Sequence record: MZ189261.1 | Length of the DNA stretch: 64,000 nt | From: Escherichia phage S143_2 | Reading direction: 5' to 3' (one strand) | Shown: positions 30,915 through 44,690 of the stretch, piece by piece | Layout of the letters: the number at the start of each line of letters is the position of its first letter | Numbering within the stretch: position 1 is the first letter of the stretch | Program-made: the position numbers and the translations under genes | Notes under the pieces: model-generated | What the model saw: only the letters and a program-made list of their open reading frames with translations | Database searches by the model: none | What the model was told of the DNA's origin: nothing

Positions 30915-31244
30915 TTATACTCTAGGCTTTTGAGCTTGTTTGGTATTGGATTCCCATGCGGCTTTGGTAATTTTGTTAGCGGCATAACCAAAGGCACTAG
31001 ATAGAACACCTTTAGAGTTGAATACATCCAATCCAATAAGTACACCGGCTGTGTTAAATTTAGGAGCAAAGTACGCATTAGTTTTAGAAAGAGCTTTTTT
31101 CAATTCAGGGTCTTGAACCAAGCCATCAAAAACGCCTTTACTATTTACTTTATATGTTACTTTGGGATTTTTAGCTTCTTCGATAGCAGCTTTCTGTTCC
31201 GCAGATAATGTAACTTCAGTGATAAACTCTTGATATGTTTTCAT
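30915..31244 (-). CDS. internal protein (CTS-bearing), IPII-like position
   Basis: 109 aa; N-terminal MKTYQEFITE capsid targeting sequence. Confidence 0.6.
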   Translation of the reverse strand: MKTYQEFITEVTLSAEQKAAIEEAKNPKVTYKVNSKGVFDGLVQDPELKKALSKTNAYFAPKFNTAGVLIGLDVFNSKGVLSSAFGYAANKITKAAWESNTKQAQKPRV

Positions 31245-31282: not shown

Positions 31283-31861
31283 TTAATTACCACGGGCTGC
31301 ATTAGCAACGGCATAAGCGTACTGAACATTAGCGTCTTTAAACGTACCTTTAGAGGTATCTATTTCTGCCTTAAAGCCGCCTTTAGCCATAACATCGGCA
31401 AATTCTTTACGGAAGGCCATTGCATCAAGACCTTTCCATGATGATTTATGCTTGGCAAATTCAAGACCTGCGAAGTTGACAGCTTTAGCCAATTTATTAT
31501 CAATGACCCATTTACCGGCTTTAGGCACAAACTTCGGTCCTTTTTGTTTAGAGAACAGTTTTAAATTCCAGCGACGAAGATCACTGTCGGCTTTAACAAA
31601 AGCTGCGTCTAAGTTACTAGCAACAACATCTTCAATATGAGCAAATTTAAGTCCGTCAACTTCAATATTTAGATCGTTACGCCAGCGAAGTCCTTCCCAA
31701 GCGAAGGCTTTAAAATCAGAAGCCTTTGTGGCTAGATATCGTTCAATTGGAGCAGTTTTAGGGTCAAAGCCGTTTCCACCACGATAAGTCCACTCGTCCT
31801 TATTAATGCCTTGAGCTTTTCCTGCAAAGGCCTCGGCGATAAATTCTTTATACGTTTTCAT
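31283..31861 (-). CDS. ipIII: internal protein III-like (CTS-bearing)
   Basis: 192 aa (T4 IPIII 194 aa); N-terminal MKTYKEFIAE. Confidence 0.6.
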   Translation of the reverse strand: MKTYKEFIAEAFAGKAQGINKDEWTYRGGNGFDPKTAPIERYLATKASDFKAFAWEGLRWRNDLNIEVDGLKFAHIEDVVASNLDAAFVKADSDLRRWNLKLFSKQKGPKFVPKAGKWVIDNKLAKAVNFAGLEFAKHKSSWKGLDAMAFRKEFADVMAKGGFKAEIDTSKGTFKDANVQYAYAVANAARGN

Positions 31862-31887: not shown

Positions 31888-32202
31888 TTATTCTTTAGGG
31901 AAGTTTTTAGAGTATGCGTCGTAAAGTTTATTGCCGATGCGACGGAAGACTTTAGCTGCAAAACGGTTTTCAGGGTTTTTAATCATGATTTGCATCATGT
32001 AAGTTCCTGCGTCCGAAAGAGCTTCTTCATAGTACCCATTAATTTCTTTAAGAGTCCTACGTTTACCACCAGGACCATCAACAGTAATTTTCCATTTACC
32101 TGTAGAAGTGCGGCTCGGTGGCTCAACTTGTTCAATCCAAATATAACCACCTTCAACGCGTTGGTTGGCTGATTCTGCAATAAATTCTTTATACGTTTTC
32201 AT
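31888..32202 (-). CDS. internal protein (CTS-bearing)
   Basis: 104 aa; MKTYKEFIAE leader. Confidence 0.6.
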   Translation of the reverse strand: MKTYKEFIAESANQRVEGGYIWIEQVEPPSRTSTGKWKITVDGPGGKRRTLKEINGYYEEALSDAGTYMMQIMIKNPENRFAAKVFRRIGNKLYDAYSKNFPKE

Positions 32203-32266: not shown

Positions 32267-32527
32267 TTAAGCTTTACCGCCAGAAATAATTCCGAAGTTG
32301 TTAAAATCGTATCCAATATCGTCAACATCTACTTTAGGGCTTGCTACAACATAAGCAATTTCACTACGTTTTGCATAGGTGTTGATTTCTTTACCATCGC
32401 CACCTAAGAAAAAATACCCATTACGTTTTAATGAGCCAAAGTCTTCCGCATCACCAATGAAAGCTTTAACTTTAAATTTGGGGCTTTTGGCATCTGCTTC
32501 AGAGATAAATTCTTGGTACATTTTCAT
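32267..32527 (-). CDS. internal protein (CTS-bearing)
   Basis: 86 aa; MKMYQEFISE leader. Confidence 0.55.
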   Translation of the reverse strand: MKMYQEFISEADAKSPKFKVKAFIGDAEDFGSLKRNGYFFLGGDGKEINTYAKRSEIAYVVASPKVDVDDIGYDFNNFGIISGGKA

Positions 32528-33005: not shown

Positions 33006-33287
33006 CTATTTTTCTGAAGCGCCTGAAATATATTTTTCAAGACGTTGTTTCATCAGCGAGCCGTTCTTAGCGATTTCTTCCGGTTTATCGCACATACGCA
33101 ACAAGGCTTCAAGCTTAACGATATCGCTGGTACGTTCAAATTTGCGAGTATCTATCTTACTAGCAAGTTCAGAAATACGTGCTAATAGACTTTCAGCTTC
33201 AACCAAAGCTGCACCTAGCTTAGTTGCAAATGTGTCAGTAGCTTCGTTAAGAATAGATTCTGATAAAAATTCACTATATGTTTTCAT
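33006..33287 (-). CDS. internal protein (CTS-bearing)
   Basis: 93 aa from ATG 33287; [10 protein letters not shown] leader. Confidence 0.55.
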
Positions 33288-40180: not shown

Positions 40181-40345
40181 TTAGATGTAAATTATTTCAA
40201 CGTCACCTTTAGCTGCTTTATAACCTTCAGCCCAAGATACAACAGAGTTTTTATCCGAGGATTCAAATTCAGGCATTGGACTTTCACCAATATTCACACA
40301 GTATGTTTCTTCATTTTCGTCAAACCAAATAATTAAAGTAGTCAT
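40181..40345 (-). CDS. hypothetical small protein (54 aa)
   Basis: ATG at 40345; MTTLIIWFDENEETYCVNIGESPMPEF...; below track cutoff. Confidence 0.3.
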   Translation of the reverse strand: MTTLIIWFDENEETYCVNIGESPMPEFESSDKNSVVSWAEGYKAAKGDVEIIYI

Positions 40346-40412
40346 TTTGTTTACTCCACTGTAGTTGATAAGTCTATAGTATCACCATCCTTGGTGCTTG
40401 TACATCATTATT

Positions 40413-40718
40413 TTATTTTTTCCAACTTAACAACTTGTAGTGTCCTTCATTCATACGTGGTTTATCCCAAGAAATACTAATATACGATTCACTGTCAATA
40501 GAAGTCGCCGGGTTTTTCTCTACCGTAAGACCTTCACTTTCCAGCCATTCAATAGTATTTGCGCATAAATCTGAAGAACACCTCATCGGAAACCGGCAAG
40601 ATTTTTCACCTTTAGCTGCAGTGTTATACATCTTTTCTAAAATACGCTTTTGCACGTTTTTAAAAATAGTTTCAGCAGATTCTTCAGATTTTTTATTCAG
40701 TTCGGTATAAAGACTCAT
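40413..40718 (-). CDS. hypothetical protein
   Basis: 101-aa ORF. Confidence 0.45.
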   Translation of the reverse strand: MSLYTELNKKSEESAETIFKNVQKRILEKMYNTAAKGEKSCRFPMRCSSDLCANTIEWLESEGLTVEKNPATSIDSESYISISWDKPRMNEGHYKLLSWKK

Positions 40719-40804
40719 AACATTTTCCTCATGTTTTTATAGGTCTATAGTAACACATCTAGGGAAGAAGTAAACAACTTTTTCAGTAAGTTATAGACCC
40801 CCTA

Positions 40805-40824
40805 ATGGGGACCGAAGTCCCCAT
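40805..40824 (-). other. stable stem-loop with UUCG tetraloop (AUGGGGAC-UUCG-GUCCCCAU)
   Basis: perfect 8-bp stem 4 nt after stop of 40828..41454. Confidence 0.45.
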
Positions 40825-40827
40825 TCT

Positions 40828-41454
40828 TTACTTACGAGTTTTTGCATACTGAGCAGCGTCAGCAGCCAAACGACCTGCCTGACGAAGTTTTTCTTTAATC
40901 GCATCGTGAAGTGGTTGAGTATACTTCAAACCTTCGATAGTCAAATAAAGACGATAAAGGTCTGGGGTGTCAAGGTTGTTGATATGTTGGCCATTACGAA
41001 GAATATTGAATTCACGAACGAGTGAAGATGTATCAGATTCAATATCACGAACAAGCGAAGATAGTTGTTTATATTTTTTTTCCAGGCTAGAAGTATCAAA
41101 CTTAAGAGCAGGAGCTTTAGGAGTTGCTTTTACTTCCGGCTTAGGCTCAGGTTTTGCTACTGCTTTAGGGGTCGCAGGTTTAGGAGTGGTAGGAGCAGGT
41201 TTCACTTTAGGCGAACCCGATTTAGCAGAAACACCACCACTAACAATATCTTTGAATGCTTTAGAAGCTCTGTAATATTCTTTTTGGCTGGAAGTGTCGA
41301 TACCGTACATGGCTTGAACGTTTTTGAAAAACTCTGTACTAGTTTTTGTACCAGAAATAGCATCGTAAGCAGCTTGCCATTTCTCTTTTGTCATACGTAC
41401 ACCGGCTTCGGTGATTACTTCCGTTTCGGCTAAAAATTCATTAAAAGTATACAT
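40828..41454 (-). CDS. Pro/Lys-rich protein with degenerate CTS-like leader
   Basis: 208 aa; N-terminus MYTFNEFLAE resembles CTS; central PKPATPKAVAKPEPKPEVKATPKAP low-complexity linker. Confidence 0.5.
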   Translation of the reverse strand: MYTFNEFLAETEVITEAGVRMTKEKWQAAYDAISGTKTSTEFFKNVQAMYGIDTSSQKEYYRASKAFKDIVSGGVSAKSGSPKVKPAPTTPKPATPKAVAKPEPKPEVKATPKAPALKFDTSSLEKKYKQLSSLVRDIESDTSSLVREFNILRNGQHINNLDTPDLYRLYLTIEGLKYTQPLHDAIKEKLRQAGRLAADAAQYAKTRK

Positions 41455-41498
41455 TGATGGTCCTTAGAAAGTAGGTTTATTGTTTACTATATTTATAC

Positions 41499-41526
41499 AA
41501 AAAAGCCCCAACCTTTCGGAAGGGGC
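41499..41526 (-). terminator. rho-independent terminator (minus strand)
   Basis: interrupted GC-rich hairpin (GCCCC..CC-uuuc-GG..GGGGC) followed by U6 on minus strand. Confidence 0.55.
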
Positions 41527-41829
41527 TATATACCTTGTCGGGGTTCCACCTACTAAGGCAAGTGTTTGTACGAAACGCCGGGGTTCGAACCCGGTTATTA
41601 AGCAGTTGACGCTACTCAATATTTTTAAAAGGCCATATCTCGACCATATCCGAACGTTCCGTCAAAAACGCTACTCGGCTTACGGCAAAGATATTTCCTC
41701 GAATCGATAATTCGGTGCGCCGTTTCTGCTGTGGTGTAAGGGGATATTAACAAATCGTAAAGATTTATTAAGACCAGTCCTTACTCAGGGAACATCAGTC
41801 CGACGACTTACCGGTAGCGACCCGGCTTC

Positions 41830-42174
41830 TTATTTTGGCATATCATCAATTTGCTCTCGACGCCGACGCCATAGATTAATCGCTTCATTAACACATTCGG
41901 CGTTTGGTATATGACGGCAATAATATAATGATTCGCGTTTCTGGAACCGATGTTGCAATGGGATTTCGTTTAAAAGGTCTTTACGGTCAAAGTATTCAAA
42001 ACTAGTTAACCCGGAACGGTTTTTAATGAACTTCCAATGACCGAATTCATTTTGAACATAGATGTAATCTGCGTGTTGGTATAACAAATTAATCAATCGG
42101 TCTGAAATAACTGTATCATGTTCGTTAAAATAAAACGTTAAATCATGAACTACTAAGTAAACATTACCTTTCAT
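41830..42174 (-). CDS. hypothetical protein (start corrected to ATG 42174)
   Basis: 115 aa from MKGNVYLVVHD...; track start 42222 would overlap tRNA-Arg. Confidence 0.45.
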   Translation of the reverse strand: MKGNVYLVVHDLTFYFNEHDTVISDRLINLLYQHADYIYVQNEFGHWKFIKNRSGLTSFEYFDRKDLLNEIPLQHRFQKRESLYYCRHIPNAECVNEAINLWRRRREQIDDMPK

Positions 42175-42192
42175 ATTTTCCTCACTTAAAGT

Positions 42193-42269
<77 letters not shown>

Positions 42270-42273
42270 TATT

Positions 42274-42348
42274 TGGCGGACGTGATAGGATTCGAACCTA
42301 TAACCAATCGCTTAACAGGCGATCGCTCTGCCATTGAGCTACACATCC
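42274..42348 (-). tRNA. tRNA-Asn (anticodon GUU)
   Basis: 75-nt cloverleaf; anticodon stem ATCGC/GCGAT, loop CUGUUAA; T-arm GGTTCGAATCC; encoded CCA. Confidence 0.8.
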
Positions 42349-42352
42349 AAAT

Positions 42353-42439
42353 TGGTGGGGAGTGATGGAGTCGAACCACCCGAGTCGCAATGACAATGGA
42401 TTTACAGTCCACACCGCTACCTCTACGGGATAACTCCCC
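42353..42439 (-). tRNA. tRNA-Tyr (anticodon GUA)
   Basis: 87 nt with long variable arm; anticodon loop CUGUAAA; acceptor GGGGAGT/ACTCCCC; encoded CCA. Confidence 0.75.
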
Positions 42440-42451
42440 TAATTCATAATT

Positions 42452-42526
42452 TGGTGGCCCTGGGTGGAATTGAACCACCATCTGGCGATTATGAGTCGCT
42501 TGCTTGAACCTTCCAGCTACAGGGCC
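42452..42526 (-). tRNA. tRNA with CAU anticodon (Met or Ile2)
   Basis: 75-nt cloverleaf; anticodon loop CUCAUAA; position after Thr corresponds to T4 tRNA-Ile. Confidence 0.75.
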
Positions 42527-42527
42527 T

Positions 42528-42604
42528 TGGTGCTGATTGACGGAATCGAACCGCCGACCTTCTCATTACAAGTGAGTTGCTCTACCTACTGAGCTAAATC
42601 AGCA
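42528..42604 (-). tRNA. tRNA-Thr (anticodon UGU)
   Basis: 77-nt cloverleaf; anticodon loop CUUGUAA; T-arm GGTTCGATTCC. Confidence 0.8.
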
Positions 42605-42608
42605 AAAC

Positions 42609-42698
42609 TGGCGGAGGCGATAGGATTTGAACCTATGAGTCGCCGGAGCGACTGCCGGTTTTCAAGACCGGTGCATTAAACCACTCTGCCACGCCTCC
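42609..42698 (-). tRNA. tRNA-Ser (anticodon UGA)
   Basis: 90 nt with long variable arm; anticodon loop CUUGAAA; acceptor GGAGGCG/CGCCTCC. Confidence 0.8.
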
Positions 42699-42700
42699 AG

Positions 42701-42774
42701 TCTCCATACAAGGATTTGAACCTTGGGCCTCCTGATCCCAAATCAGGCGCTCTACCAAACTGAGCTACACGGAG
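42701..42774 (-). tRNA. tRNA-Pro (anticodon UGG)
   Basis: 74 nt; anticodon loop UUUGGGA; T-arm GGTTCAAATCC; CCA not encoded. Confidence 0.75.
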
Positions 42775-42784
42775 TAAATTAAAT

Positions 42785-42858
<74 letters not shown>

Positions 42859-42863
42859 AAATT

Positions 42864-42950
42864 TGGTGCGAGAAGTGGGACTCGAACCCACAAGGAAATC
42901 ATTCCGCAGCATTTTAAGTGCTGTGCCTTTACCAATTTGGCCATTCTCGC
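42864..42950 (-). tRNA. tRNA-Leu (anticodon UAA)
   Basis: 87 nt with long variable arm; anticodon loop CUUAAAA. Confidence 0.8.
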
Positions 42951-42951
42951 G

Positions 42952-43024
42952 CTGGGAATAAAGGACTCGAACCTTTGCATCCTGGAATCAAAATCCAGTG
43001 CCTTACCAACTTGGCTAATTCCCA
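42952..43024 (-). tRNA. tRNA-Gln (anticodon UUG)
   Basis: 73 nt; anticodon loop UUUUGAU; T-arm GGTTCGAGTCC; CCA not encoded. Confidence 0.75.
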
Positions 43025-43121
43025 ATTATTAACAAAGGCTCTCTAACAAGAACCCTTGATGATAGAGGGTATTAATCAGTGCGATATGAGTTAATAATAA
43101 CAAATAATTCTTAAAGCATAT

Positions 43122-43415
43122 TTACCATTTATGATAATACATATTTACGATGCAGTCAAGACCCAAAGGATTCTTGAAAATATCATATTCAAGAGGACCT
43201 TTTTCCGTTTCAATAAAGAAATCAAAATTTACTGTATTAAATTTACGGTCTTCCTTCACTAATTTAACTTGAGAAGATGAACGGTCAATGTAAACCTTTT
43301 CAACTTCAAAACATGTTAAAATGCCATAATCATCAATCAAGGCTTTAGCCGCGTCTTGATCATATTTATATCCATTTTCAATAGACGATACTTTAGCATA
43401 AAGAATCATTATCAA
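43122..43415 (-). CDS. hypothetical protein
   Basis: 97-aa ORF upstream of tRNA cluster. Confidence 0.45.
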   Translation of the reverse strand: MIMILYAKVSSIENGYKYDQDAAKALIDDYGILTCFEVEKVYIDRSSSQVKLVKEDRKFNTVNFDFFIETEKGPLEYDIFKNPLGLDCIVNMYYHKW

Positions 43416-44417: not shown

Positions 44418-44690
44418 TCATTTTAAATAAATTGCGTATTTTTTATAACCCGCCGACTCATGACGAAGACCCTTATCATTAGCAAAACGCTCAATGTTGT
44501 TAATTTGATTCTGGTCAAGTTCAGAGATGTCAAACACGAAAAAGTTACGTTTGTTACCAACTGTTACATAGTCAGTTAAATCAATATCATATAGGTAATT
44601 GATGTCAGCAATCAAAGTCTTGACAGCTTTGCTAATTTTTACTTTTTCGTTAAAAGTAGCTTCATTGATAAATTCTTTATAGGTTTTCAT
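44418..44690 (-). CDS. internal protein (CTS-bearing), IPI-locus
   Basis: 90 aa; MKTYKEFINE leader. Confidence 0.6.
   Translation of the reverse strand: MKTYKEFINEATFNEKVKISKAVKTLIADINYLYDIDLTDYVTVGNKRNFFVFDISELDQNQINNIERFANDKGLRHESAGYKKYAIYLK

Follow-up and report, generated by a model that had tools for sequence, protein, structure and literature searches.

The gene at 40828-41454 on the minus strand of Escherichia phage S143_2 (MZ189261.1) probably specifies a T4-type internal head protein that has escaped annotation, that is, a protein made late, directed to the capsid by an N-terminal capsid targeting sequence (CTS), processed by the prohead protease gp21, packaged and injected. The source phage is a T4-like coliphage of the genus Mosigvirus, and all positions given here are those of the window, by which we mean the whole stretch of 64,000 nucleotides (64 kb) that was analysed. 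The open reading frame (ORF) runs from an ATG start to a TAA stop and specifies 208 amino acids (23.1 kDa, pI 9.5). Its product is 100% identical to ASD53948.1, a "hypothetical protein" of Escherichia phage ST0, and 71 records contain copies that are at least 90% identical. The ORF is conserved in 138 phage records from at least eight genera (full-length in 130 of the 138), and it is therefore a real gene. Two short elements at the beginning of the protein are central to the assignment:

41425..41454, minus strand: candidate variant CTS, MYTFNEFLAE, residues 1-10, ending in an L-x-E protease motif
41407..41424, minus strand: putative second protease-type site, TEVITE (I-T-E/A), residues 11-16

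Seven proteins of the window carry a canonical CTS of the form MKT(M)Y.EF[IL].E (starts at 44690, 44357, 33287, 32527, 32202, 31861, and 31244), and with the gene studied here the window holds eight CTS-type genes. The N-termini of 1075 start sites, each followed by 50 codons or more, were scored against these seven. MYTFNEFLAE obtained a score of 24.4 (z = 4.4) and ranked 8 of 1075, just below the seven canonical CTSs themselves (35–40), and the next best start site reached 14.7. It has six of ten residues in common with MKTYKEFIAE, in the length and register of the T4 CTS, and departs from the seven CTSs of the same phage in having Tyr for Lys2, Phe for Tyr4, and Thr after Glu10, a place taken by Ala, Ser or Val in the others. 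In T4 IPIII, as mapped with mutants, targeting depends mainly on residues 4 and 7, and processing on residues 8 and 10; gp21 cuts after [L/I]-x-E (PMC9026906). The decapeptide has Phe4 (the residue of T4 IPI), Phe7, Leu8, and Glu10, with Lys2 not kept, and its L8-A9-E10 fits the protease motif. For four of the seven canonical proteins the best PHROG match is "internal head protein" or "internal virion protein", and for the one starting at 32527 such a match comes second. The IPIII orthologue of the window (31283-31861) is a gene separate from the one described here. Phage ST0, which has the identical protein, gives matches to Peptidase_S77 (gp21; E = 2.9e-107) and T4_CASP (gp22; E = 1.4e-89); both genes adjoin the portal and major capsid genes and lie outside the 64-kb window. 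As a separate observation, the three minus-strand ORFs at 30915-31244 (MKTYQEFITE), 31888-32202 (MKTYKEFIAE), and 32267-32527 (MKMYQEFISE), whose CTS is perfect or nearly so and whose best PHROGs are 3966 and 35655 ("unknown function"), probably encode further internal proteins without annotation.

Over its full length the gene product belongs to PHROG 2280 ("unknown function"; E = 1.4e-57, with residues 1-203 aligned to positions 1-178 of the 178-column profile), a family with members in Mosigvirus, Dhakavirus, Tequatrovirus, Karamvirus, Kanagawavirus, Winklervirus, Tegunavirus, Marfavirus, and Jiaodavirus. Its members include JS98 orf135, RB69 ORF149c/148c, HP3 gp116 and gp117, fD1 Gp140, and fHe-Yen9-01 gp153 and gp154. 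Like the S143_2 protein they have a CTS, a helical N-domain, a Pro/Lys/Ala-rich spacer, and a helical C-domain, and usually occupy a slot between the tRNA/rnaC cluster and e.8. JS98 orf135, 66% identical overall, begins with MKTYNEFLNE, and 13 of its first 16 residues are those of the window protein 33006-33287, which matches PHROG 3499 "internal head protein". The HP3 gp117 and RB69 ORF149c type begins with MKTYAEFLTE, fD1 Gp140 and HP3 gp116 with MKSYTQFLNE, and the forms of Karamvirus, Kanagawavirus, Marfavirus, Tegunavirus, and Jiaodavirus follow M[LI]x[FY]x[ED][FI][LI]xE. The N-terminus of the JS09 clade, to which the S143_2 protein belongs, is the least canonical in the family; its nearest forms, MITFNEFLNE and MINFNEFLAE, occur in other members, and thus it stays inside the family range. 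When profiles were aligned with hhalign, the group of the S143_2 protein matched the HP3 type with a probability of 91% over 165 columns and fD1 Gp140 with 90% over 149 columns (22% identity), and fD1 g140 matches PHROG 2280 at E = 4.2e-60.

Nearly all family members possess a second motif, [LIVM]-x-E-[AS]-G, at a distance of 4–8 residues from the first, which in the S143_2 protein reads ITE16/AG. The ITE/A site matches the cleavage context of IPI and the Alt site ITE-6, and several other head-protein propeptides are removed by gp21 in two cuts. A propeptide of 16 residues would probably be removed here in two cuts as well, and because the second site ITE16/A is conserved, Ala17 is likelier to be the mature N-terminus than Thr11.

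The remainder of the protein divides into three parts, as seen in an AlphaFold2 prediction made from a 14-sequence alignment (mean pLDDT 73):

41227..41406, minus strand: predicted helical N-domain, residues 17-76 (helices 23-31, 39-50, and 57-72; pLDDT 80–87)
41107..41226, minus strand: predicted disordered Pro/Lys/Ala-rich spacer, residues 77-116 (pLDDT about 30 over residues 74-113)
40831..41106, minus strand: predicted three-helix C-domain, residues 117-208 (helices 122-153, 164-177, and 180-206)

Two motifs of the N-domain, RMTKxKW and MYGIDTSSQKEYY, are conserved in the alignment. Of the 40 residues of the spacer, 11 are Pro, 9 are Lys, and 8 are Ala; it contains four [ST]PK motifs and a PK-rich stretch, PKPATPKAVAKPEPKPEVKATPKAP, at residues 91-115, and its length differs among orthologues, with indels even between close ones. 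The C-domain is the most conserved part of the protein and is predicted with pLDDT above 90 over residues 120-206. The predicted mature protein (residues 17-208) would have a mass of about 21.2 kDa and a pI of about 9.7–9.8, compared with 20.2 kDa and pI 9.6 for the IPIII orthologue of the window. The initial annotation had described the N-terminus as resembling, without matching, the CTS consensus, followed by a low-complexity PK-rich linker, and had left the choice between a diverged packaged protein and an unrelated protein with a flexible linker. The resemblance is above chance by the ranking given above, the linker was found at residues 77-116, and its flexibility is borne out by the predicted disorder. 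Between the two readings the first is favoured by the CTSs of the family, the mapped residues Phe4, Phe7, Leu8, and Glu10, the late promoter, and the family member found in fD1 virions.

It is rather unlikely that the gene specifies a late cytoplasmic protein that is never packaged, with a decayed relic of a CTS at its N-terminus in the JS09 clade and a late role in, for example, assembly, lysis timing or superinfection control. Such a relic would agree with an N-terminus that is off the phage's own consensus at positions 2, 4, 5, and 8 and has Thr after Glu10, and the mature domains are unlike those of any known virion protein; yet the four functionally mapped CTS positions are kept, close forms of the decapeptide are present in other family members, and the second E/A site is conserved. 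In the Mosigvirus orthologues read (P0001 with 112 member sequences, P0014, and phage moskry) MYTFNEFLAE is invariant while the linker gains indels, and a distant member of the family is present in virion preparations, which again speaks for a packaged protein. This last point comes from Yersinia phage fD1, in which g140 (67942-68415, 157 aa) is marked "PPAP", the label for products detected by LC-MS/MS in virions purified by ultracentrifugation, and has no similar T4 protein (Table S3, PMC8309999). The same study called 113 products particle-associated, including MotA, Ndd, and topoisomerase (PMC8309999), and is thus an unspecific list; Gp140 is moreover a distant relative, and its detection supports the packaging of the family weakly. 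In the accessible part of a virion study of the Jiaodavirus ValerieMcCarty, all "hypothetical" proteins appear at low peptide counts.

The following elements surround the coding region:

41499..41527, minus strand: intrinsic terminator, AGCCCC/GGGGCU stem followed by a U run (stem 41527-41504, U run to 41499)
41490..41497, minus strand: putative T4-type, gp55-dependent late promoter octamer TATAAATA, an exact match, 35 nt before the ATG
41461..41465, minus strand: Shine-Dalgarno sequence AAGGA, 6 nt before the ATG, as read from the sequence
40804..40825, minus strand: 9-bp GC-rich stem with a UUCG loop, 2 nt past the stop codon, without a U run

Both hairpins had been picked out in the initial annotation, as a minus-strand terminator upstream (41499-41526) and a UUCG stem-loop directly downstream (40805-40824), and both hold up against shuffled sequences: the upstream hairpin with its U run folds at -16.5 kcal/mol (z -3.0) and the downstream stem, at 40825-40804, at -15.5 kcal/mol (z -2.1). 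Ten tRNA genes are clustered upstream of the gene (42193-43024). Copies of two T4 stable RNAs stand between tRNA-Arg and the gene, namely rnaD (species 2; 41833-41714, minus strand, 86.8% identity) and rnaC (species 1; 41569-41707, minus strand, 97.8% identical to T4 over 139 nt). Because the hairpin and the gene follow the tRNA cluster and the rnaD and rnaC copies, the upstream terminator closes the tRNA/rnaD/rnaC transcription unit, and the gene cassette has its left border there; JS98, RB69, HP3, and T4 possess the same hairpin.

The late-promoter consensus covers positions -13 to -6, and its first T is poorly conserved among relatives (PMC1524935). The window contains nine exact copies of TATAAATA, and the octamer by itself is unremarkable in AT-rich DNA, so that its weight as a candidate promoter lies solely in its conserved position in orthologues. 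It is found, exact or varied at the first base, 27–35 nt before the ATG in JS98, PG7, fHe-Yen9-01, PKO111, Marfa, Kosakonia 305, and Entb_45, in each case preceded by a terminator hairpin; RB69 and HP3 have only AATAAATA, farther upstream of the gene. A hairpin directly past the stop codon is present in every orthologue, with a T run after several, and the UUCG hairpin of S143_2 would mark or stabilise the 3' end of the transcript and is the right border of the cassette. The octamer is kept in its position and hairpins stand on both sides, and thus by its sequence motifs the gene is a self-contained late transcription unit. The UUCG hairpin (40804-40825) was also called by the terminator scan on the plus strand, where CTTTACTTAC comes after it; it may serve both strands, but the plus strand has no gene in the vicinity.

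Compared with RB69, the window is 91% identical upstream and 97% identical downstream of the gene, and the identity breaks exactly at 41490/41491, which is at the promoter, and at 40732/40733, which is 14 nt before the ATG of the next gene. In place of window positions 40733-41490, RB69 (locus L010, 12883-14072) has a PHROG 2280 allele of the HP3 type together with e.8, and the window has no e.8 gene beside the gene studied. Identity to the Tequatrovirus HP3 is 93% in the RB69 segment and about 79% in its flanks, which suggests a recent exchange between genera. Tandem paralogues are seen in Yersinia phage fHe-Yen9-01 (locus L006, 2501-3070 and 3080-3616, beginning MLQYNEFLKE and MLEYSEFLKE) and in HP3 (locus L011, 902-1375 and 1501-2064, beginning MKSYTQFLNE and MKTYAEFLTE), and fD1 has the Gp140-type paralogue only, the HP3 gp117 type being missing. 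The gene is absent from T4, in which tblastn gave no match at E <= 10 and the slot is a 284-bp gap without an ORF. Compared with the intact 187-aa HP3 gp117, the PHROG 2280 copies are split by a frameshift in RB69 (ORF149c/ORF148c; L010, 13429-13991) and in G4500 (a CDS pair; locus L012, 1501-2063), and these are either pseudogenes or sequencing errors.

Domains are exchanged as well as whole alleles. C-domains of at least three unrelated kinds follow the same CTS, N-domain, and spacer, and conversely the same C-domain also occurs with another N-domain; other C-domains are present in Entb_45, PKO111, P0023, and P0026, and other N-domains in P0025, P0027, and Gp140. In Klebsiella phage PKO111, a Jiaodavirus (locus L009, 2495-3079), the interval from head gene 24 to the annotated gene that comes next holds an unannotated ORF of 194 aa, MKFKDFLTEEELFEAAPGRMTKSKW..., with an N-domain as in the S143_2 protein and a different C-domain. 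Its cassette is arranged as terminator, TATAAATA, ORF, and terminator, beside head genes 23 and 24. On these genome comparisons the gene behaves as an exchangeable accessory cassette, and domain swapping and allele replacement would fit an effector in an arms race.

This pattern bears on a second alternative, in which the protein is targeted by its CTS as an accessory of the prohead core, aiding head assembly or DNA condensation (the latter through a DNA-binding spacer putatively like a histone H1 tail) with no role in the next host. The head-gene neighbours of the PKO111 relative are in its favour, as are the strongly basic character and four [ST]PK motifs of the protein and the slowed head assembly and polyheads of T4 IPIII mutants (PMC9026906). 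We consider this alternative unlikely, since the gene is absent from T4 and frameshifted in RB69 and G4500, the last two both isolated phages, and its N- and C-terminal domains are swapped between genera at a locus with allele replacement; gene loss, domain swaps, and allele replacement are typical of accessory arms-race genes and not of assembly factors. That the ORF arises by chance or is a mis-called gene, for which only the low-complexity middle section could be cited, is practically negligible, being refuted by its full-length conservation in 130 of 138 records and its match to PHROG 2280 (E = 1.4e-57), and contradicted by a confident two-domain fold, a ribosome-binding site, and a promoter.

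For an injected internal head protein, the following course of events can be proposed. Late in infection the gene would be transcribed as a unit of its own between hairpins, with TATAAATA as its promoter. During prohead assembly MYTFNEFLAE would act as a CTS and bind to the gp22 scaffolding core, after which gp21 would cut behind Glu10 (LAE/T) and probably also behind Glu16 (ITE/A). A basic protein of about 21.2 kDa (pI about 9.8), with two helical domains and an extended Pro/Lys spacer, would thereby be left in the DNA-filled head. It would be ejected into the cell with the DNA, where it would most likely serve as an early, host-specific factor of counter-defence or take-over. From CTS binding onward these steps are inferred for the protein at hand, above all its function after injection. 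Counter-defence specific to the host would be the most likely function because of the analogy with IPI* and IPIII and the arms-race pattern of the family. IPI* blocks GmrSD, and IPIII is needed on E. coli ECOR17, where it works even without its CTS. Internal proteins are the first phage proteins in the host cytoplasm, and the two studied in T4 (IPI* and IPIII) defeat host defences; the family described here would add candidates for injected anti-defence factors.

It is tempting, if doubtful, to go further and regard PHROG 2280 as a modular delivery chassis, in which a constant CTS with its double cleavage site, together with the Pro/Lys spacer, brings helical domains that can be interchanged into the capsid, and which moves as a unit between T4-like genera. 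If this were true, each combination of domains would neutralise a different first-response defence of the host, the spacer would allow each of the two domains to fold independently once the protein had passed through the tail, and the unit of terminator, late promoter, ORF, and hairpin would be the late-gene counterpart of PeSL cassettes. The latter, or "morons", of T4-type phages (Arbiol et al. 2010, PMC2839356) likewise consist of a single accessory gene with its own promoter and stem-loops, lie in hyperplastic regions, and are swapped as a unit. They differ in having an early sigma-70 promoter in contrast to the putative late TATAAATA type read from the sequence here.

The likeness to T4 IPIII, IPII, and IPI begins with the targeting peptide, which in each case has 10 N-terminal residues in the same register and ends in [LI]-x-E. 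The mature proteins are similarly small and basic (about 21 kDa and pI about 9.7 predicted for the S143_2 protein, about 20 kDa and pI 9.6 for the IPIII orthologue of the window), and the genes are alike in late expression, predicted for the S143_2 gene from its promoter motif, and in being non-essential, patchily distributed, and placed in a plastic region around tRNA genes. In contrast to the T4 proteins, the S143_2 protein carries Tyr2 and Phe4 instead of Lys2 and Tyr4, would probably undergo a second cut that gives a 16-residue propeptide, and has two domains with a Pro/Lys spacer not found in IPI*, IPII or IPIII. It has no detectable homology to them beyond about residue 25, and the mature part showed none to T4 IPI, IPII or IPIII. 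Kinship with IPIII (PHROG 5341) was considered and is not claimed, because hhalign against the IPIII orthologue of the window aligned residues 1-26 only, covering the CTS and some 15 residues after it (GINKDEW against RMTKEKW), with a probability of 36%. A tblastn match of the C-domain to the rIII protein of an Aeromonas phage (E = 6) was taken as noise.

Other searches were equally silent on function. Pfam gave no domain (best match SIX1_SD, E = 0.21), the PDB sequence search found nothing, and structure and fold searches returned no functional homologue. NCBIfam gave only low-complexity matches to the proline-rich regions of PspC and TonB, the latter at 16.8 bits against a cutoff of 315. The rigid (Glu-Pro)/(Lys-Pro) spacer of TonB is also rich in Pro and Lys, predicted to be non-globular, and variable in length; this likeness is compositional only and implies neither homology nor a shared function. 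An exhaustive search of 1.84 billion proteins recovered 13 cluster representatives only; each of them is a phage-like member of this family, and homologues from cells were not among them.

The kind of protein proposed here is already known and no concept is changed by it. What is new is the assignment, as probable internal proteins, of a two-domain family that is "hypothetical" in every record seen. The double cleavage site would be new too, as would a CTS that tolerates variation beyond the consensus MKTY, such as M[YLI]x[FY]xEF[LI]xE; the wider range would be useful for annotation and for T4-based protein-packaging vectors.

The flanks of the gene yielded some further observations. An Rfam scan of 40300-43200 returned tRNAs only, apart from sub-threshold matches over the tRNA genes, and was silent on rnaC and rnaD since Rfam has no family for either; we know of no function for these two stable RNAs. 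An ORF at 41830-42222 (minus strand; PHROG 3355) has a longest form of 130 aa from a TTG start, whose 5' end overlaps tRNA-Arg (42193-42269) and whose 3' end abuts the rnaD-like RNA; the ST0 record has a shorter CDS of 114 aa. On the other side, directly past the UUCG hairpin, there is an early-promoter-like site at 40747-40775 (minus strand) with GTTTAC, a 17-nt spacer, and TACTAT, which was missed by the consensus scan because only 8 of 12 positions match. It precedes an ORF of 101 aa (40413-40718, PHROG 18312), and a similar GTTTAC(A/T)...TACTAT pattern follows the gene in JS98, Kosakonia 305, and Entb_45.
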